Virus record (IMG/VR): IMGVR_UViG_3300028588_000015
Location: 96,001-160,000 of that record
Reading direction: 5' to 3' (one strand)
From: a virus
Lineage: Duplodnaviria > Caudoviricetes
DNA: 64,000 nucleotides
This document shows positions 2,807 through 20,865 of this stretch, piece after piece. A program made the position numbers and the translations under genes. Under the pieces are notes generated by a model. It saw nothing but the letters and a program-made list of their open reading frames with translations. It was not told the origin of the DNA and ran no database searches. Numbering within the stretch: position 1 is the stretch's first letter; the number at the start of each line of letters is the position of its first letter.

Positions 2807-4263
2807 AAGTTAACTACGATATCAATAAGAAGCACCCGCAATCCATCCTGGGCTTTTTCAGCCAGTACTTCGAAGGCCGTTTTCATAACGGCTTGACCGA
2901 GTACCCGTACGAGCGGTTCTTGGAAGAGGTGTATCCCTACCATCTCACGGCCGAGCGCAACATGCTGGAAAACTGGGATGGCGTGCGTCAAGCGCTGCCC
3001 TGCGTAGCGATCCGACAGAAACGTCCGAACGGCGAAACGCAGTACTGGGGTTTCCGCCGCACTGACAAGGTCGGCGAGGCCCGCATCGCCGGCATGGTGG
3101 CCTGCTTCTGGGGTGGTCACGTCGATGCTGTCGACGTATCGTTTAACGACAAGTCGGTTCTCGCGCTGGATCTTACGCTCAAGGTTGGCCGTGACCGTGA
3201 ACAAGGTGAAGAATACCGCATCTTCCGTGAAGCCTCGCCCTTCGAGAAAGACTGGTCGATCAAGCTACCACTGACGCCAGCCAACCAATTCATCGCCAAC
3301 AGTACGGTTGAAGTCGATCGGCACCACGTGGCAATCATCTATACGGTCGACCTGCCGGAAGACCACGCGGTCGAAGTGCGCGAAGACGAACTGGAAGACG
3401 TGCCGCCGATGACGGCGCAAGAAGCTCTCGACGCGCACGAAGCCGGCCAGTTCGAACTGGAAAGCTGGGCGCTGATCTACTTCCGCCACGTGCGTGCCAA
3501 GGAACTGCTCGACTCTGGCGCCGTAGTCGCTATCGACCCCGTACCCGAGCGGCTGGCGGACGTTTCTCTGACCCCTTACAAGCGTAGTATCGCCGGCATC
3601 GTGAAAGACGGCGAGATCAGCGAGGCCGATAAAGCGCAGGGCTACAGCTGGCCTGTCAAAATCCAATTCGGCCAAGCTACCGACTGGGACCATGGCCCGT
3701 TGTACGACGCTTACGTAGCGCGCCGTGGCAAGAACTGGGACGAGTTTAAGCGCAAGGTGATCCTGATGTTCGGCATCGAAGGCAGCAAGAAAGTCTGGGA
3801 AACACCGGAAGACACGAATGCAACGGCACTCTTTCCGGCCGAGGCAGAAGCGTACCGAATGCTGTTCCGCTCGGCGGGTGTTGAACACACAGTCGGTCAG
3901 ATGCTGACGGTACTTGACCTCTTGGCGATGGACACGGTCAAAGCAATGACCCTCATCCATGTGCAGTTCGACGCCGACATGAATATCGTCGATGGCCCGT
4001 ACAAGCTCGTCAACGGCGAAAAGGTGCCCCATAAGTCGGTCGCTCTCGAAAGACCGCCGCAGGTGGTCCATGAAGAAGGTGGTGACGAGGATCTGGCAGC
4101 ACATACCCGCCAAGCGGCCGAAGCATGGTTCAGCGGCATCGATCATCCAGACATCGTTGAAATCCGCGAAGCCGTGATCGCCAAAATCTTGGAAAAGCAG
4201 CGGCTACAAGAATCCAAACCGGACGCATGGGATAACTTCAAGCCCAGCAAGTCAGTCGAATAA
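2803..4263 (+). CDS. Nudix-like hydrolase domain (N-terminal) fused to unknown C-terminal region
   Basis: RQALPCV..., GEARI, FWGGHVD and REQGEE motifs resemble COG4112-type Nudix proteins; start at 2803 after AAGGA. Confidence 0.55.
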   Translation: MKVNYDINKKHPQSILGFFSQYFEGRFHNGLTEYPYERFLEEVYPYHLTAERNMLENWDGVRQALPCVAIRQKRPNGETQYWGFRRTDKVGEARIAGMVACFWGGHVDAVDVSFNDKSVLALDLTLKVGRDREQGEEYRIFREASPFEKDWSIKLPLTPANQFIANSTVEVDRHHVAIIYTVDLPEDHAVEVREDELEDVPPMTAQEALDAHEAGQFELESWALIYFRHVRAKELLDSGAVVAIDPVPERLADVSLTPYKRSIAGIVKDGEISEADKAQGYSWPVKIQFGQATDWDHGPLYDAYVARRGKNWDEFKRKVILMFGIEGSKKVWETPEDTNATALFPAEAEAYRMLFRSAGVEHTVGQMLTVLDLLAMDTVKAMTLIHVQFDADMNIVDGPYKLVNGEKVPHKSVALERPPQVVHEEGGDEDLAAHTRQAAEAWFSGIDHPDIVEIREAVIAKILEKQRLQESKPDAWDNFKPSKSVE

Positions 4264-4268
4264 ACTAT

Positions 4269-4298
4269 CGGCATAAAACCGCTACCTTCGGGTAGCGG
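4269..4298. terminator. Terminator hairpin; GGCATAAA (TTTATGCC on - strand) on its left side
   Basis: CCGCTACC-TTCG-GGTAGCGG preceded by CGGCATAAAA. Confidence 0.65.
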
Positions 4299-4321
4299 GT
4301 ATTGACTAGGAAAAAATAAGA

Positions 4322-5080
4322 ATGGAAAAGAAGAAGGTTCCTTTGCTGTTGTTCTCGGGCGGTCTCGATTCGTCCTACATGTTGCAAACGTATCTGGAAA
4401 AGGGTGACGTTGAAACACTTTACGTCAAAGGAGCACAGCATCCAGACAAAGTCACGCTCGAATTGCGGGCTCGCACGCGCATCATTGCCGAACTGGAAAA
4501 GAAGACCGGCAATAGGGTTCTCAAGGACCGTGTCGTTAATCTCCACGATTTGTTCGAAGGCGACATGCCTGACCGTGCTTTTGTTCAACCCATCACCTGG
4601 ATCACCGGTGCGCTCCAAGTATCGAACGGAGAGAAGCATGCTCACCTTGCTATTGGCTATGTCAGTGGCGACCAAGTTTCTTCCGAAATTCCGTTCATAC
4701 ACGCTGCATGGGAAAACATACAGCACTTCACGAAGCAAAATACTATCCCGGTTGAGTTTCCATTGAAGGTCACCACCAAGCTGATGATCCTCGATAACAT
4801 CTGGCCTGAAGTGGTTCAGCACGTCTGGGTCTGTGAAATGCCCGAGCGGCGCGGTGACCGTATCGACGGCGTGGGTAGTAAAAAAAGACCAAAATCATGC
4901 GAATGGTGCGCAGCATGTCTTACACAGGCTGGCACCTTGGCGATGTGGAAACAGAAACACGGTGAGCCATACAGCCATAGATTCATCGCGCGGCTGCGTT
5001 GCAATAAGTTAAGAGAAGAAGATGCGTTAAAACGAGTACTACTGAAAGAAACTATCCCTCCAAGAGAAAATTCAAGATGA
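4322..5080 (+). CDS. queC: QueC-like PP-loop ATPase (7-cyano-7-deazaguanine synthase family)
   Basis: LLLFSGGLDS PP-loop near N-terminus; C-terminal WVCE...CEWCAAC Zn-binding cysteines. Confidence 0.75.
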   Translation: MEKKKVPLLLFSGGLDSSYMLQTYLEKGDVETLYVKGAQHPDKVTLELRARTRIIAELEKKTGNRVLKDRVVNLHDLFEGDMPDRAFVQPITWITGALQVSNGEKHAHLAIGYVSGDQVSSEIPFIHAAWENIQHFTKQNTIPVEFPLKVTTKLMILDNIWPEVVQHVWVCEMPERRGDRIDGVGSKKRPKSCEWCAACLTQAGTLAMWKQKHGEPYSHRFIARLRCNKLREEDALKRVLLKETIPPRENSR

Positions 5081-5403
5081 AAATCAAACGTTTCGATATC
5101 CCTATCAAAATCTTCGTCACCCGTTTCTTCACGCCCTATCCCAAGAAAACAGTCGAACGTGAGCGCTCGACCGTCGAGACCCGAGAAGGTCGAATACGGG
5201 CACCGAAAGACATCGAAGACGAACTGATCAAGCTCCTCGCCGACGCCAAGGCATCCAATCTCGTGATTACGGTGACCCAACAGTCCGTGTTCCCGCCGGC
5301 GATGGGCCGCATCCAAGATCACATCGTGATTCGCGAGTCATATGAAGTTGCGCGCATGATCATGGAGCGCAAAGACTTCAACCAAGACAAGGAACAAGAG
5401 TGA
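5077..5403 (+). CDS. Hypothetical protein
   Basis: 108-aa ORF, ATGA-coupled to the queC-like gene. Confidence 0.7.
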   Translation: MKIKRFDIPIKIFVTRFFTPYPKKTVERERSTVETREGRIRAPKDIEDELIKLLADAKASNLVITVTQQSVFPPAMGRIQDHIVIRESYEVARMIMERKDFNQDKEQE

Positions 5404-5404
5404 T

Positions 5405-5818
5405 ATGGACGATTCCTTGATTGTGCGTGAAATCTTCGCCCACCGCGTCGACGATCACGTGTCGCCGCTCAAGATCGAGTGCCTTGGGGTTGCGGCACAG
5501 GGCGGCGCACAGAACTATTACCGGATCACCGGTTTTAATTACGCAGCCGACGGCAAAACGGTCAATGCCCTGCCAATCTCTTTTCAGATTGGCAACCCCG
5601 AGGTGTTGGGCGTCAACGGTGTGACCATGGAAGCACTGCTGGCGGTGGTCATTGACCGCCTGTCAGGATTGCAAAAAGGGATGTACCCGTGTAGCGAAAA
5701 CAATATGGCTTTGGGGCATCTCGAAGCCAGCATGACTTACCTGCACGCACGGTCGCGCCGTATTCAACAGACGCTGTTTGAAATTGAAGCCATGCCTGAA
5801 CTGCCAGAAAAGAATTGA
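5405..5818 (+). CDS. tad1: Tad1-like anti-defence signal-sponge protein
   Basis: GGAQNYYRI, ISFQIG, GVTMEALLAVVIDRLSGLQKGMYPCSENNMALGHLEASMTYLHAR align by eye with Tad1 ([60 protein letters not shown], recalled). Confidence 0.8.
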   Translation: MDDSLIVREIFAHRVDDHVSPLKIECLGVAAQGGAQNYYRITGFNYAADGKTVNALPISFQIGNPEVLGVNGVTMEALLAVVIDRLSGLQKGMYPCSENNMALGHLEASMTYLHARSRRIQQTLFEIEAMPELPEKN

Positions 5819-5924
5819 TGTAAATTATTACATTAATTTCCCTATGGTATGTTTAGTACTGGGTAACTCATTTTCCCCAACCTGAATAAAGGGTAACCGA
5901 TGAACAAACTCGAATAACCAAAAA

Positions 5925-6570
5925 CTATCTGATGATCCGTGAAAACCGGAGCCACGTGCTGAGCACTGTGCGAGGTGTCACCGTATCCAGCGGTGTGGTA
6001 CGTGGTTGGGATAATACCCCATGAAACCCGAGGGCTCCAGAAGTTGTTCTGGGATTGCTTCTGCCGGTTGACAGACCCTTCACGGAGTCTAACAACTGAG
6101 TGTGTGTGCCTCTGGTCATAGAACGTGACGTTTTTGGGTTACGGTACGTCGCATTTTCCTTTCCTAGGAAAAGATACCATGCAAGCTTCCAACTTGTGAA
6201 AACCGTACGGCCAAACTTTCTGGGTGGAACCAGTCATGTTTGGCAAGTTGTCCACATTCCCGTGGCGGCCCTCCCTTGGGCAGCGGACAGCGGGAAAGAG
6301 CATATTACCCCGGCCCGTGTGGAGTGTGGGTGGTTGGTGCCGCGGCCTGCGGCCAGTGCTCTGTGTGCAGCCTGTAACACCTTTCTCGTGTTGGCTGAAA
6401 ACAGCCGGCCTCTTTGGAACCCGCCAAAGATGATTCGCTCGATATTGGGATACCGACGGGATGTCGGGGTCGGGGGAATGCGTGTGAGGGTGTTACGGGA
6501 TGTACAGTGTTTTCATGGATCGTGATAGGGATGTCCGATCTTGACAGTCACCCTTCGGGGTGACTTTTTT
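5925..6570 (+). ncRNA. Candidate large highly structured ncRNA (~600-650 nt), family unassigned
   Basis: No credible CDS; 13-bp closing helix 5934-5946 with 6509-6521 (one G-U), extended by CTATC/GATAG; more than 10 internal hairpins; 3' UUCG intrinsic terminator. Confidence 0.75.
6546..6570 (+). terminator. Intrinsic terminator ending the candidate ncRNA
   Basis: AGTCACCC-TTCG-GGGTGACT then TTTTT. Confidence 0.9.
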
Positions 6571-6594
6571 CCGACTACTAAAGAAAACGATACC

Positions 6595-7146
6595 ATGAAA
6601 CATTTACGATTGGCATTGGAGCATAACTCACCATTAGCTAACATGGAAGAGGTGAGGGCGGAACCAGAAGGAAATATGTGGTTTCGACACACCTCGCCGT
6701 ATGCGCTGGCTGAATTGAAACCGTTGAGTTACGATGAATTGGAAAAGGTTCGGCCCGATTACGATGTTGAGGCACGTAAAAGGACAGAAAAGAAATACCA
6801 TCGCTTGGCACACACGAATCCCGACACGAGTTTTCTTTACGCCACGATGGTGGGATTTCATCAGATGGAAGATGTGCTGTCTTACCCAGGTTACACATAT
6901 TTCTTCAAACTGGAACTATGGCAATTGCCCGAATGTATCTTTGATGTCGTCGATCAAAAGAAGTGGATGGAGCCGACCAAAGGTATTGCTGGATACACGC
7001 TGGCACGAGACATTTGGACGCGGCATCGGCGAGAATTTAAACCGTACGAGGAAGAAGGTCTCGGCACTATTGAACCACGTATCGAGCTTATCATTCCGTA
7101 TTCGGTAAAACCCAAACTCTATGTCCCGCAAGAAGAAGACCGTTAG
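6595..7146 (+). CDS. Hypothetical protein with N-terminal LRLALE motif (possible head-packaged protein, possible ART-like fold)
   Basis: MKHLRLALEH start; FRHTS...FLYAT...RIELII pattern; start at 6595 rather than 6541 (which lies in the terminator). Confidence 0.7.
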   Translation: MKHLRLALEHNSPLANMEEVRAEPEGNMWFRHTSPYALAELKPLSYDELEKVRPDYDVEARKRTEKKYHRLAHTNPDTSFLYATMVGFHQMEDVLSYPGYTYFFKLELWQLPECIFDVVDQKKWMEPTKGIAGYTLARDIWTRHRREFKPYEEEGLGTIEPRIELIIPYSVKPKLYVPQEEDR

Positions 7147-7151
7147 AAGGC

Positions 7152-7182
7152 AGAGGGAGGCTAACGCCTCTCTTTATGCCGG
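7152..7182 (+). terminator. Terminator with TTTATGCC tail
   Basis: AGAGGGAGGC-TAAC-GCCTCTCT then TTATGCCGG. Confidence 0.75.
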
Positions 7183-7235
7183 ATTGTGAAAAATACCGAG
7201 GCAAGATATTTCATAGTGAACACAGGGAGAAACAG

Positions 7236-7661
7236 ATGTGGCCGTCAGTCATCGTACTCGATACGCAGCGTATCATGAAAGCGTTTCGCGAACACGCGGA
7301 GCAGTCCGGTAAACCACTCGATTTTCCAGATGAAATGGTACGTGAGATTGTGGTCTGTCTTCGTCATGCAAGACGCGCGACGCTGCGCCTGGACCAACTC
7401 ATGTGGTGTATCTTGAGTAACGAATTCGAGCACCATTACGCAGCGTACGCGGATTCCACCGTATTGGTATTTATTGAAGAACTGGGCAATGTACTAATGG
7501 ATAGCATTATCCGACATAATCTCTACGACCAATACGGCACGCTGCACTATCGTTATCTAGAACCCCGAGTGGTTGATTTTAACTGTATCATTTTAAAGAG
7601 GAGTGAAAATGTTGGTAGCGACGACCCCCTCCCCAGCCCAACCCCCCGTTATCATTTTTGA
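7236..7661 (+). CDS. Paralog family A member (P-x-V/I-x-x-L-D N-terminus)
   Basis: MWPSVIVLD... and C-terminal LYDQYGTLHY...CIILK; GGGAG RBS. Confidence 0.7.
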   Translation: MWPSVIVLDTQRIMKAFREHAEQSGKPLDFPDEMVREIVVCLRHARRATLRLDQLMWCILSNEFEHHYAAYADSTVLVFIEELGNVLMDSIIRHNLYDQYGTLHYRYLEPRVVDFNCIILKRSENVGSDDPLPSPTPRYHF

Positions 7662-8016
7662 TATCAGTGAAGTGATGTGGGAGTACCGAGACTGCTTTGG
7701 TCCAGAGAGCGATGCAGGCATCGATATGGAGTATCTCTTCAATGATATTTTGCAAGCATTGAAAGTTCACCAGTATCACCCCAATGTACTCTTTATCTTG
7801 GCGAAGGCAGTGATTGCCAATAGCCGCGAGTACTTGCCTGTCGAAGAAAAAAGAATTGAAGAAGCCATCTTACAGTTGGGTGAGGTGATTCACAAGAAGT
7901 TACAGAGCAGCGGCTTTTACATCAACCAACAACACCCGTACCATTTACATCGTCTTTTCATGAACAACAGTTTGGTGCTTGCTCATGAAGGGTATTCGGA
8001 CTACGTGGAATTCTAA
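7609..8016 (+). CDS. Paralog family A member
   Basis: PPVIIFDI..., C-terminal HPYHLH...NSLVLAH; GAGGAG RBS. Confidence 0.7.
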   Translation: MLVATTPSPAQPPVIIFDISEVMWEYRDCFGPESDAGIDMEYLFNDILQALKVHQYHPNVLFILAKAVIANSREYLPVEEKRIEEAILQLGEVIHKKLQSSGFYINQQHPYHLHRLFMNNSLVLAHEGYSDYVEF

Positions 8017-8074
8017 TCGATGGGCCTTCAGGCTCATCTTTTTTTTTTGTCTGTTCAAGAACCATTAGAATTAA

Positions 8075-8091
8075 TTACAGCAACATATTAC
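8075..8091 (+). promoter_or_regulatory. Putative phage promoter motif copy
   Basis: TTACAGCAACATATTAC between a terminator and the next gene. Confidence 0.5.
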
Positions 8092-8146
8092 AAAGGGAGC
8101 ACAAGTGAATGTGACTCTTAACTAACTTGAAGAAAGAGGAAAGAAC

Positions 8147-8545
8147 ATGAAAATCGAAATTGCAGACTGCATGAAAGTCGCCAAAGACTTGGTGGAAATG
8201 ATGAAAAAGATCGATGGGTGTGACCCGCGCGACACTTCGCAATTAAGTGTTCGCATTAACCCTATTATGCTGGAAGACAACAATGGCACGGAACGGCCGG
8301 GTATTCAGGTGCTTAATACCGAGAATAGCTCAACCGTAAGTTACATGGTCGTGGGCGGTCATCCGAGATGTTTTACGATCGAATACATGATGCTGACGCT
8401 GGCGGAACACGAGTCTGAAGAAGAAGATTTTCCAAGTAATTTCTTGGACCTCGACCGCGACGGCATGGCTTTGTTTAGTTTGCACGTATTTAATTTCCTA
8501 GGATTCGGTGTGAAACCCACCGTACCTGGCGGCGAAGGCGATTAA
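8147..8545 (+). CDS. Hypothetical protein
   Basis: 132-aa ORF with AAGAGGAAAGAAC-ATG leader. Confidence 0.8.
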   Translation: MKIEIADCMKVAKDLVEMMKKIDGCDPRDTSQLSVRINPIMLEDNNGTERPGIQVLNTENSSTVSYMVVGGHPRCFTIEYMMLTLAEHESEEEDFPSNFLDLDRDGMALFSLHVFNFLGFGVKPTVPGGEGD

Positions 8546-8619
8546 GAAAAAAGTACGAGAAGGGGGGCAATAATGTGATTGACCTCCCCATTGTTTTGTC
8601 TAACTGAAAGAGACTTATC

Positions 8620-8916
8620 ATGACTACCGCCTGTGCAGTTGCTCAAGAGTCGTATCGTATCAGGATGGACATCGGTATCAAAAGTGATAATGGCCATGTG
8701 CTCCTTCGTGCGAGGGAATATACGACCACGATCACGCCGCCGGTGCAGAAGTACACGACACATGCCGCAATCATGACGCGTTGTGAAAACCTCGCGCTGG
8801 CGGAATACGCCAAGCAATTTGAAACACAAATGGATGGCGACATGACCATCCAACGTCTGCTCCGTGGAAAAGATTGGAGCTTCTTCTACAAAGTCAATAC
8901 GTTTAAAAAGGAGTAA
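8620..8916 (+). CDS. Hypothetical protein
   Basis: 98-aa ORF in co-oriented run. Confidence 0.65.
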   Translation: MTTACAVAQESYRIRMDIGIKSDNGHVLLRAREYTTTITPPVQKYTTHAAIMTRCENLALAEYAKQFETQMDGDMTIQRLLRGKDWSFFYKVNTFKKE

Positions 8917-8920
8917 TACG

Positions 8921-9163
8921 GTGAAATCGAAAGAAATGATGATCAAGGATGCACGCATGTATTTGCGTTCGGCCAAAGCGGGGATTAGCGAGGATGGCGC
9001 TTCCCTTACGTTTATGGAAGCAATGGCGGCAGCTAAACAAGCCGAACAAGCCGCTGCCGAGCTTTATCGCTTGGCCGGGCGTATCGAAGTTGAAGCGGAC
9101 ATTAAACGAAAGAAGGCAATCGGCAGTGCCGCCGACGAATTGAAATACATCGTCGCGGCGTAA
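8921..9163 (+). CDS. Hypothetical helical protein
   Basis: GTG start after AAGGAG RBS. Confidence 0.65.
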   Translation: MKSKEMMIKDARMYLRSAKAGISEDGASLTFMEAMAAAKQAEQAAAELYRLAGRIEVEADIKRKKAIGSAADELKYIVAA

Positions 9164-17961: not shown

Positions 17962-18636
17962 ATGAACTTTCATCCTATCGTAACACCGTACGGCCGCCTC
18001 ACTATCGTCCCGCCCGATATGCCAGTCTATAACCCGCATGACATCCCAAATGCGATCATTCGCCTGACCAGGCATGACGGTGCAGATGAATCAACCGATC
18101 TCATGTTACCGTACAAGATCACCGGCATGAACCGCACCAACGTCAATAGTCAACGCGTGGTGCATGCCCTGACTGGACTTGTTAATGCGCAGATCGAAAG
18201 CCGGGAATTTGTAGCAGTCTATGGTCAATGCAGCCTTGGCAGTAAAAATAGGCAGTTGGCACGTGTGGGCGCAGCACTACAGCAGTCGCTGCCGGGTCGT
18301 ACAGGTATCCATTACCGCATCATGGACCCCGCCGCAAAAGACCGCGAGGTACGTAATTACCTCGTCTGCGCGGTGGTCAACGGGGTGGAGTTCCGTACTT
18401 GGCCTGACGAAGAAGAATACAAGAGCAAGACCAACAATGCCGTCCGCACCGAGATTCACGGCACCTGCCAAATCTTCGGCCGAAAAACGCGCTGCACACT
18501 CAAGCACGATTTCTTTTCGCTTGACTTGTTCTCGCCTGAAAAATGGGAAGAAGTCACGATGAAGCGTGTGAACGAATACTTTCCCTTCCTGTATGGTACC
18601 GGCCTGTTCAGTGACCTGATGTTCTCGGTCGGCTAA
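17962..18636 (+). CDS. Hypothetical protein
   Basis: Long ORF; start uncertain (17881 or 17962). Confidence 0.7.
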   Translation: MNFHPIVTPYGRLTIVPPDMPVYNPHDIPNAIIRLTRHDGADESTDLMLPYKITGMNRTNVNSQRVVHALTGLVNAQIESREFVAVYGQCSLGSKNRQLARVGAALQQSLPGRTGIHYRIMDPAAKDREVRNYLVCAVVNGVEFRTWPDEEEYKSKTNNAVRTEIHGTCQIFGRKTRCTLKHDFFSLDLFSPEKWEEVTMKRVNEYFPFLYGTGLFSDLMFSVG

Positions 18637-18736
18637 GCTTTTCGGTTATCTGCTCCGCGAGTGGTTCACTCGCTTTGATGCCCTGTAGTTCGGGGCATCT
18701 TTTTTCTTTGGTTATTTGAAACAGGATTCAAGTCCT

Positions 18737-18754
18737 TTACAGTCACATATAACC
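18737..18754 (+). promoter_or_regulatory. Putative phage promoter motif copy
   Basis: TTACAGTCACATATAACC just after terminator hairpin at ~18678-18708. Confidence 0.6.
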
Positions 18755-18805
18755 TGCCTGTACTGAGTCCAGTATTTCTATTAACCGTAAAGAAAGGAAG
18801 TAATC

Positions 18806-19087
18806 ATGAGCCAAGCCGCCGACCGTAACCTGACCTCCCATGACCTACTGCACGTTGGTATGTCGATGTTCGTATTCGGAAGCACCGACCAAAAACGCCT
18901 GCCGCCGTACATCCAAAATCAAGTGCGTGACGCCCGCGTCAACGAACTGAAAGCCAAGCAAGAACGTCTGCAAAATGCCGAGTGGACCATACCACGTTCG
19001 CTCTCTAAGGAAGAAGCCGAGGAACTCAAGACCCTGGAAGCCGAACAAGCTGCCAACCCCACCCGTACCCTTGCCGTCAAGCCGTAA
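18806..19087 (+). CDS. Hypothetical protein
   Basis: 93-aa ORF with AAAGGAAG RBS. Confidence 0.75.
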   Translation: MSQAADRNLTSHDLLHVGMSMFVFGSTDQKRLPPYIQNQVRDARVNELKAKQERLQNAEWTIPRSLSKEEAEELKTLEAEQAANPTRTLAVKP

Positions 19088-19194
19088 CGCTGTGAACCTC
19101 AGGAGTGACCCAATCGGGTCCTCCTGCTCGGGTAGTCATTTACTCAGTGATTGCCTTAGTTTTTTCTTGTTTGTTGACACAAAGGAAGTACATC

Positions 19195-19566
19195 ATGAAA
19201 GACAATATCCTTGCACAGATGAAAATCTGCTTGGCCGCTTTATTAACGGTCTGCACTGTCGTCATGTTTTTCAGTGGTCCACCGGGCGTCTTAGCGCTGT
19301 GTTATATATTCATGCCGTGGGTCAAGAGCACCTACAATTACGAACTCGCTTACGACCCGCAGTATTTTGCGGTCACCGACACATTCCAAAACGTATTGAC
19401 GGCCTCACTCGCCGTTGGCGTAGCGCTATTATTGGCGCGCATTGGATCGACCCATCCACGTTTCCGCTGGTGGGCGCATTTTGCTGTTTTAATGACGGCA
19501 GTAGTGACCATGGTCTTGATGCTGTGGAGTATTGGTCAAGGCGCAATTAAAACAGGTAGTTTTTAA
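19195..19566 (+). CDS. Multi-pass membrane protein
   Basis: About 3-4 hydrophobic segments; directly upstream of the BCS1-like ATPase. Confidence 0.7.
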   Translation: MKDNILAQMKICLAALLTVCTVVMFFSGPPGVLALCYIFMPWVKSTYNYELAYDPQYFAVTDTFQNVLTASLAVGVALLLARIGSTHPRFRWWAHFAVLMTAVVTMVLMLWSIGQGAIKTGSF

Positions 19567-19584
19567 AGAAAAGGGAAAATCATC

Positions 19585-20865
19585 ATGCAGTCAACTTCGT
19601 TAATGAATGTCATCAGTCATTCGTCCAGTATCTGGACCATGCTTAGCAGTTTGTTACTGCTCTCCGGTGCTGGTTTACTCACCTACGCATTGCGGCGCAT
19701 TCCTAGTAAGATCGGCCGTTTTCTTTTGGCCCGCTTTACGGTCAGCCTGACGATGCATACGGCTGATCCGACTAGTACCATGATTTCGCAATCCTTTTTC
19801 ACTTGGTACATGAACAGCGCGGCGTCTAGACACATGCGGCGGTTCAGCTACGACACTGGTTGGAAAGATCGCGAACGGAATATGTCTGGCTCTGGACCTC
19901 GGCCTAACTCGGGCGTGTTCGCACCAGGTGTCGGGATTCATTTTTTCATGTTCAAGGGTACGCTGGCGTGGTTTACGCGCGAACGCAGCGCTAATTCGCT
20001 TAGCCCGAATACCCATGAAGTGGAAATCTATTTTGCAGGCACGCGCCGGCGGATTATCGAAGACTTCCTAGAAGAAATCAAACCAAAAGTCGACCGGCGC
20101 GATGTGCCGATCTACACACTTGGTCGCAAATACGGGGAAGCGAAGTGGGCCATGAGCCGCGTCAAGCGTAAACGCCAACTGGATTCGGTGGTCATTCGTC
20201 ACGACATCAAAGACATGGTTGTCAACACGATTGACGACTTTTACAAGCGCGAGCATTGGTATCTCGAACGCGGTATCACGTACAAACTGTCCTTTATCCT
20301 TCATGGGCAACCAGGTACCGGCAAAAGCAGTTTCATCTTCGCGCTGGCGTCGCACTTCAATCGTCCGGTGTATATGGTGAACATGAACGCACTGAACGAT
20401 ACCACCTTTCAATCTGTGCTCGATGAGGTAGGTGAAAACGCTTTCATCGTGATCGAGGATGTGGACGTCGGCACAGCCACCGCTGAGCGGGAAGAGGAAC
20501 CAGTCACCTTGGAAAAAGTAGTCAAGAACGGGGAAGAAAAGAAACAAGCCATTTCGATGAGCACGATTTTGAATACGCTTGACGGCATTGCCTCACTCAC
20601 GGGCAATGTGATTTTCCTGTCCACCAACCACTTGCAGAATCTCGACCGTGCATTGACCCGCCGTGGCCGGATTGACCACATCATCGAAATACCACCAATG
20701 CGCCACGAAGAAATTCAAGAATATGCGAGTTTGATGTACGAAAAAGAAGTCTTCCCGGTAGGCATCCACTTCAAGGACATGCCAGGCAGTGACGTCCAAG
20801 GGATTTTCTTGGACCACAAGGAAGACTTCGATGGCTTCGTGGCCGATATGTTGAAACACCAATAA
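19585..20865 (+). CDS. BCS1-like membrane-anchored AAA+ ATPase
   Basis: N-terminal TM; LDSVVI...WYLERGITYKLSFILHGQPGTGKSS (Walker A), IVIEDVD (Walker B), LNTLDG, STNH..LDRALTRRGRID. Confidence 0.9.
   Translation: MQSTSLMNVISHSSSIWTMLSSLLLLSGAGLLTYALRRIPSKIGRFLLARFTVSLTMHTADPTSTMISQSFFTWYMNSAASRHMRRFSYDTGWKDRERNMSGSGPRPNSGVFAPGVGIHFFMFKGTLAWFTRERSANSLSPNTHEVEIYFAGTRRRIIEDFLEEIKPKVDRRDVPIYTLGRKYGEAKWAMSRVKRKRQLDSVVIRHDIKDMVVNTIDDFYKREHWYLERGITYKLSFILHGQPGTGKSSFIFALASHFNRPVYMVNMNALNDTTFQSVLDEVGENAFIVIEDVDVGTATAEREEEPVTLEKVVKNGEEKKQAISMSTILNTLDGIASLTGNVIFLSTNHLQNLDRALTRRGRIDHIIEIPPMRHEEIQEYASLMYEKEVFPVGIHFKDMPGSDVQGIFLDHKEDFDGFVADMLKHQ

Follow-up and report, generated by a model that had tools for sequence, protein, structure and literature searches.

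We found that the gene at positions 5405-5818 of a 64,000-nucleotide stretch of viral DNA (hereafter the window; bases 96001-160000 of the 225,547-bp IMG/VR viral record IMGVR_UViG_3300028588_000015) encodes a phage sponge protein that truly belongs to the Tad1 family. The protein, P0001, is placed in the family by pairwise sequence comparison, by profile, by fold and by its predicted dimer. It is a stand-alone domain that begins seven residues in and has no N-terminal extension, and it is the sole Tad1-family copy in the whole record. An earlier reading of the bare sequence (the original prediction) had given the coordinates of the open reading frame (ORF) exactly; the ORF encodes 137 amino acids (aa) on the plus strand. 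We favor, with a probability of about 0.55, the view that P0001 acts in the cytoplasm as a dimeric sponge, which captures an adenine-containing signal of the TIR or CD-NTase type and has no cyclic-trinucleotide site.

Membership in the family was evident from pairwise comparison. A phmmer search of P0001 against the PDB sequences ranked phiKZ gp184 first (8y6v_I, E-value (E) 2.7e-11), and CmTad1 (8kbb, E 1.4e-6) and CbTad1 (7uav, 8kbh and 8kbe, E 5-7e-6) were matched as well; the Tad1 alignment spans residues 24-121 of P0001, and the next match after the Tad1 chains is noise. P0001 also matches PHROG 2428 (E 2.7e-18). We built a first hidden Markov model (HMM) from P0001 and its six first relatives and searched 1.84 billion proteins, and this P0001-based HMM found 5,823 cluster representatives at E ≤ 1e-3. 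A profile of 61 stand-alone members recovered CbTad1 at E 5e-27 over chain residues 11-124, which is near full length.

The predicted fold agrees with the sequence. The AlphaFold2 model of P0001, made from the 61-member alignment, has a mean predicted local distance difference test (pLDDT) score of 91.5 and consists of four strands followed by two long helices. The first 20 matches of a Foldseek search against the PDB are all Tad1 (probability 1.00, template modeling (TM) score 0.62-0.78, E about 1e-7 to 1e-5), and the first match beyond Tad1 reaches only E 0.3. Hence, the co-linear match in motif order and spacing, from which the original prediction had called the protein Tad1-like, is real and far above chance, and Tad1 is recovered by both profile and fold.

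Co-folding two copies of P0001 gave a score of 0.80, compared to 0.00 for the best of three controls. Three runs agreed in at least 94% of contacts, with a partner pLDDT of at least 80, and the predicted dimer interface takes in residues 89, 99 and 116. Among the calibration proteins, 20 of 30 whose structures are pairs of one chain attained this mark, as did 1 of 23 whose structures are single chains; these counts are only rough for P0001, for which our own alignment was used. Since solved Tad1 dimers exist, passing this mark shows likeness to them, which the result may simply reflect, and is no proof of binding.

Local scans of P0001 with Pfam, NCBIfam and PADLOC returned no match, and neither did a search of its own genome with PF24729.2. 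These blank Pfam scans carry no weight because the same local copy, version 2 of PF24729, detects neither P0001 nor ten strong members of the family at E ≤ 0.001. For version 3 of this model (Acb2_Tad1_hairpin), a precomputed match is on record for P0001 and its relatives. Hence, screens with the older model will undercount the Tad1 branch to which P0001 belongs. The same hairpin model is common to Tad1 and Acb2 (anti-CBASS 2), a small homo-oligomeric phage sponge for cyclic nucleotides. No Acb2 structure is among the sequence or fold matches of P0001, and the β-sheet half of the protein is specific to Tad1.

The record that carries the gene has an estimated completeness of 85% and derives from a phiKZ-like phage from leaf litter with phiKZ-type virion genes. 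It encodes a homolog of ChmA (the phiKZ nuclear shell protein gp54) in a 659-aa open frame (E 1.1e-17, 28% identity). A 938-aa virion protein in the window has homologs in 289 phiKZ-like records, the best being that of Burkholderia phage FLC9 (42.9% identity), and, judged from such sequence comparison, FLC9 is the closest cultured relative of the phage. Searches of the locus and the RNA region against cultured phages by megablast and blastn gave no match and thus revealed no close cultured relative. One leaf-litter metagenome run contains the whole stretch, and this DNA run may itself be the source sample. Together, the ChmA homolog and the position of FLC9 support the setting proposed in the original prediction, a nucleus-forming jumbo phage of proteobacterial type.

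A Tad1 in such a phage is of an established kind, since phiKZ gp184 has already been named Tad1, and the family has thousands of members. The founding Tad1 paper described 799 homologs, all from phages or prophages and with Proteobacteria among the hosts, and 10 of 10 diverse homologs tested inhibited Thoeris. A later study collected 1,587 non-redundant Tad1 homologs from IMG/VR and confirmed that CBASS and type I Thoeris are inhibited by a diverse set of members. According to Li et al., substitutions occur in the cyclic-dinucleotide/gcADPR (glycocyclic ADP-ribose) site of 12% of homologs and in the trinucleotide site of 6%. The original prediction had set the first description of Tad1, in Bacillus phages, beside its occurrence here in a probable proteobacterial jumbo phage; with gp184 known and proteobacterial hosts listed in the founding paper, such an occurrence is not new.

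P0001 has the same fold as the solved proteins CbTad1 and CmTad1 (7UAV, 7UAW, 8SMD and 8KBB-8KBH) and is predicted to form the same head-to-tail dimer. The core motifs FQ.G, NG, E.LLA..DRL,.Q.G and.EN..AL are present, yet only 21-28% of the residues are identical. Among PDB sequences, phiKZ gp184 (8Y6V chain I) matches best, with 30.6% identity to P0001, and it also comes from a nucleus-forming jumbo phage; like P0001 it is without the R90 and T97 residues of CbTad1, and in the family tree both lie within one region, each on a long branch. However, gp184 has 230 aa and an N-terminal extension, whereas P0001 is a bare domain; in gp184, the R113 equivalent is retained and the tail reads G-T-E-G-T, neither of which is true of P0001. 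Over the Tad1 domain, FLC9 gp131 is 42% identical to P0001 but retains the phenylalanine, both arginines and a KGVEGT motif; its genomic position is unrelated to that of P0001, and the surroundings of the QueC-like gene that lies near the P0001 gene are not syntenic.

We next consider what P0001 may bind. In the founding study, eleven contacts of CbTad1 to 1''-2' gcADPR were described: F82 and R109 stack on the adenine and N92 reads its Hoogsteen edge; F87 supports the adenosine ribose; the diphosphate is held by R57, R109 and R113 along with the backbone of R57 and G120; and the ribose-ribose linkage is read by H29, G55 (NH), R78 and N122, while residues 116-122 close as a lid. The double substitutions F82A/N92A and R109A/R113A severely reduced binding of both gcADPR and 2',3'-cyclic GMP-AMP (2',3'-cGAMP). 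We mapped these positions onto P0001 through HMMER alignments (the PDB chain index is the published number +1 for CbTad1 and +10 for CmTad1) and found that five of the eleven contacts are kept: G55 as G63, R78 as R85, F87 as Y94, N92 as N99 and R109 as R116. At the adenine, F82 is replaced by L89, a conservative change that retains the hydrophobic contact but not the aromatic stacking.

Conservation was assessed in the 157 other members available, which are the top matches of the profile; this sample is biased toward keeping the lid motif because the profile itself carries that motif. N99 and R116 are invariant or nearly so across the family. The L89 column holds phenylalanine in 150 relatives and leucine in 4, the N37 column (H29 in CbTad1) holds histidine in at least 90%, and the L124 column holds glycine in 137. 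The residues of P0001 at positions 120, 124, 125 and 127 are shared by none of the 157. The core is fully conserved in P0001 (F60, N71, G72, E76, LLA, DRL, Q90, N99, A102, L113 and R116).

On the favored reading, P0001 would be made in the cytoplasm of the infected cell, where the phage nucleus would offer no shield from small-molecule alarm signaling. Two copies would pair head to tail as in Tad1, each end of the dimer having a recessed pocket in which an adenine-containing signal would be sequestered. The likeliest signals are a cyclic ADP-ribose isomer produced by a TIR enzyme (Thoeris), a CBASS cyclic dinucleotide, or both; with the signal sequestered, the host effector would never be activated. 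For P0001 itself, ligand binding, the identity of the ligand, the timing of expression and the anti-defense effect are what we infer.

Several of our findings weigh against this reading. Another five of the eleven contacts are changed (H29 to N37, R57 to N64, R113 to I120, G120 to I127 and N122 to A129), and both of the residue pairs whose substitution severely reduced binding are affected, R113 belonging to one and F82 to the other. The replacements fall in strongly conserved columns: position 120 is arginine in 154 of the 157 relatives and glutamine in 2, position 125 is valine, isoleucine or threonine in 155, and position 127 is glycine in 152. The terminal branch of P0001 is the longest of the 158 tips in the family tree (1.67 vs. 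a median of 0.53), and no relative exceeds 47% identity to it.

At the C-terminus, where CbTad1 has the lid RNVLGTN (RGVEGT in the family), P0001 has TLFEIEA..., and the family tail consensus R-T-R-x-R-x-A-R-G-V-E-G-T corresponds to R-S-R-R-I-Q-Q-T-L-F-E-I-E; the RGVEGT motif is absent. In the AlphaFold2 model, helix α2 runs on through residue 129 instead of forming a tail. Of the diphosphate, ribose-linkage and lid contacts, those of R57, R113, H29, G120 and N122 are not reproduced in P0001, and those of R78 and G55 are kept. A frameshifted lid was ruled out, since neither alternative frame at 5750-5830 encodes an RGVEG-like motif; hence, the lid has been substituted rather than frameshifted.

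The original prediction had described the pocket residues of this protein as variant. It was right but understated the change: in addition to F82 becoming leucine and the loss of R90 and T97, the R113 equivalent and the whole C-terminal lid are replaced. The segment of CbTad1 ending in MW that it had given is correct and aligns to LQKGMYPCSEN...TY of P0001. However, the MW to TY and R to S (SSREN to PCSEN) changes that it had noted belong to the hexamer/trinucleotide site and not to the gcADPR pocket.

That second site is where hexamers of CbTad1 and CmTad1 take up cyclic trinucleotides, using R90 and T97 (R88 and T95 in CmTad1), and the hexamer forms via K96, Q98, E99, M102, W103 and K106 (CmTad1). 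P0001 has S97 and G104 in place of R90 and T97, so that the trinucleotide pair is missing, and H105, E107, A108, T111, Y112 and A115 at the hexamer interface, where none of the CmTad1 residues is kept. Arginine at the R90 position occurs in only 21 of the 157 relatives. Given S97 and G104, the rarity of this arginine in the branch and its absence from gp184, trinucleotide binding of the CbTad1 type is unlikely, and P0001 probably binds no cyclic trinucleotides in the manner of CbTad1 or CmTad1.

The pattern of kept and lost contacts could also indicate that the sponge has been retargeted. The scaffold and the adenine half of the pocket would have been kept while the linkage and diphosphate half (H29, R113 and the G120/N122 lid) was rebuilt for a different adenine nucleotide signal outside the known Tad1 ligands, for example His-ADPR or N7-cADPR (ADPR, ADP-ribose), or the signal of an undescribed defense system. 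We regard this as a tentative alternative. The loss is selective, in that linkage, phosphate and lid contacts are gone but N99, R116, R85, Y94 and G63 stay; the model is intact and of high confidence, which along with the predicted dimer argues against decay; and published work shows that sponge families shift specificity between homologs. The length of its branch, the longest in the family, points the same way. However, the proposal derives from the sequence of the pocket, and in published screens the Tad1 homologs inhibited CBASS and type I Thoeris, with the novel specificities found in Tad2 and Acb2 and not in Tad1. In addition, judging from the phmmer alignment, R119, beside I120, might stand in for R113 after a small local shift.

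Retargeting draws further on two relatives. In the tree, P0001 groups with P0007 and P0079 (support 0.87), both of which have leucine at the F82 position and no RGVEG tail, and one of which lies on a 216.7-kb phiKZ-like contig; this grouping may be long-branch attraction. The three proteins hint that phiKZ-like phages harbor a small set of Tad1-like proteins that lack the lid. That these three constitute a lid-less, leucine-pocket sub-type of Tad1, retargeted in nucleus-forming jumbo phages beyond the known Tad1 ligands, is a doubtful extension of this idea.

The contig in question, of metagenomic origin, carries P0079 as a stand-alone gene (5001-5432 of the locus examined), about 1.5 kb downstream of three genes for phiKZ internal proteins (PF12699).

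The longest branch fits either a change of specificity or relaxed constraint, and the second of these leads to a different explanation, that P0001 is a decaying or re-purposed homolog, either a drifting remnant on which selection has relaxed or a small scaffold that serves a different partner. Of the 30 columns conserved to 90% or more, 7 differ from the consensus in P0001 (none in the median member), and the lid glycine and one phosphate-binding arginine of the pair are among the residues changed. P0001 is also a singleton, an IMG/VR scan having shown no close relatives. In one study, about a quarter of the sponge homologs tested inhibited none of seven systems. Yet the gene has an uninterrupted reading frame with tight coupling to its neighbors, the fold-determining core is fully conserved, and the fold and dimer predictions are confident. 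Moreover, gp184 is off consensus at 14 of the same 30 columns and has the second-longest branch, and citing papers in the recent phiKZ literature call it Tad1, treat it as working and report it active. As gp184 is the more divergent of the two and is treated as a working Tad1, divergence alone is no argument for lost function. Hence, we consider decay or re-purposing of P0001 unlikely.

A free cytoplasmic sponge would differ from gp184, whose N-terminal residues (about 100) are wedged into the capsid vertex complex and whose C-terminal part is reported to be freed by the head protease and then injected. Since P0001 is without an N-terminal extension, it is probably neither packaged into the capsid nor injected. 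Extensions of more than 50 aa at the N-terminus are present in 62 of the 157 top family members, and C-terminal ones of more than 40 aa in 15. Stand-alone proteins of 121-150 aa make up about 60 of the 157, and hence there is nothing unusual about a free cytoplasmic form.

We weighed one arrangement in which P0001 would after all be virion-packaged like gp184. The 108-aa ORF immediately upstream (ORF108) and the Tad1 domain would then be one protein, joined by a +1 frameshift or split by an assembly error, and the N-terminal part would anchor it in the capsid for injection. A single nucleotide separates the end of ORF108 from the Tad1 ATG, and the two frames differ; the Tad1 frame is open for 15 codons upstream of its start (a 152-aa open frame); the combined length of about 245 aa resembles the 230 aa of gp184; and the frequency of N-terminal extensions in the family is in keeping with such a fusion. 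However, ORF108 is unlike the N-termini of gp184, of FLC9 gp131 or of any of the 62 extended members, and the DNA contig, which may be the source assembly, has no indel at the junction. The Tad1-like ORF also has its own ATG just after a purine-rich stretch, and roughly 60 family members are stand-alone proteins. We judge this arrangement highly improbable.

The extensions of other family members differ widely. The 62 N-terminal ones are heterogeneous, with a largest related group of 12 and most of them singletons. FLC9 gp131 (1877-2893 of the locus examined; 338 aa) starts with a complete cyclophilin-type peptidyl-prolyl isomerase (PF00160, E 2.5e-44); its gene is annotated merely as hypothetical, and we found no description of a cyclophilin-Tad1 fusion. 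In P0116 (388 aa), the Tad1 domain is preceded by a segment that matches the PhiKZ major capsid protein family (PF25620, E 1.1e-24, model positions 142-280), and this fusion may be another route for placing a sponge in the capsid.

The gene for P0001 is the third member of a tight trio, after a QueC-like gene and ORF108 (Table 1). The QueC-like gene matches Pfam QueC at E 6e-4, which is weaker than the cut-off, and has homologs of 35-42% identity in the jumbo phages RSL2, RSF1, FLC6/8/9, SURPRISE13, pEa_SNUABM_54 and PS119XW, with different downstream neighbors in every one of them. We found no synteny 3' of this gene with RSL2, SURPRISE13 or FLC9, and no Ralstonia phage is named among the organisms with a Tad1 match. 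Hence, the Tad1-like gene lies in a variable, accessory part of the genome. A homolog search with ORF108 returned only itself, and the Pfam and PHROG scans gave it no family.

Table 1. Coordinates of the P0001 gene, its structural elements and neighboring features (window numbering unless stated otherwise)
Feature	Position	Strand	Description
Tad1-family gene (P0001)	5405..5818	+	137 aa; ATG at 5405, TGA at 5816-5818; coordinates include the stop
N-terminal antiparallel β-sheet, residues 8-60	5426..5584	+	AlphaFold2 strands at 8-10, 23-27, 38-48 and 51-60
N37	5513-5515	+	CbTad1 H29 position; in the N-terminal sheet
Helix α1, residues 75-91	5627..5677	+	core E76, LLA and D84-R85-L86; from AlphaFold2 and alignments
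L89	5669-5671	+	replaces the adenine-stacking F82 of CbTad1; in helix α1
Helix α2, residues 97-129	5693..5791	+	carries S97, N99, G104, T111, Y112, R116 and I120; from AlphaFold2 and alignments
Divergent C-terminal tail TLFEIEAMPELPEKN	5771..5815	+	replaces the family R-G-V-E-G-T lid (CbTad1 116-122)
QueC-like gene	4322..5080	+	first in a tight three-gene cluster; PHROG 1550, E 1.6e-26
ORF108	5077..5403	+	orphan, 108 aa; start overlaps the QueC-like stop (ATGA)
Large non-coding RNA gene, 3' of the Tad1-like gene	5925..6572	+	no family-matching ORF; RNA-library contigs; hairpin at the 3' end
ChmA homolog	18590-19825 of the record, outside the window		match to phiKZ gp54/ChmA

Directly 3' of the Tad1-like ORF is a gene-free stretch, and the original prediction had placed the gene immediately upstream of a non-coding RNA, which agrees with what we found. 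A terminator-like hairpin at 6546-6565 follows the RNA gene. One contig of about 350 nt within 6130-6491 is present in each of two metatranscriptome assemblies of leaf litter, which come from different studies; both contigs are identical to the back part of the non-coding RNA, and their ends nearly coincide. These RNA-library contigs cover 6130-6491 and no part of the Tad1-like gene, so they are uninformative on its transcription. An Rfam scan of 4000-9000 gave a match at chance level only, and a BLAST search for the RNA in FLC9, by sequence comparison alone, gave only chance matches. The early-promoter-like word CACATATCAC is absent near the Tad1-like locus and is not enriched in the window. 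Farther upstream, an 8-bp GC-rich hairpin, CCGCTACC-TTCG-GGTAGCGG, is located at 4279-4298 between the QueC-like gene and the 486-aa gene that precedes it; the T-run of this hairpin lies on the minus strand, whereas all adjoining genes are on the plus strand.

Sponge proteins reveal the host alarm molecules that a phage must neutralize, and they have served in discovering such molecules. The Tad1 gene described here marks one more nucleus-forming phage that invests in counter-signaling, which fits the published view that the phage nucleus gives no protection against signal-based abortive infection. The original prediction had proposed that the ligand range may differ, and the altered pocket may indeed change the molecule caught. 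The practical value of P0001 is that it provides a natural 'mutant' pocket, in which the adenine side is kept and the arginine and the closing lid are replaced. If the lid-less sub-type is real, it could be used as bait for its signal, as CbTad1 was for gcADPR; and if the ligand is new, it would point to an undescribed defense signal in soil hosts of the Burkholderiales type.

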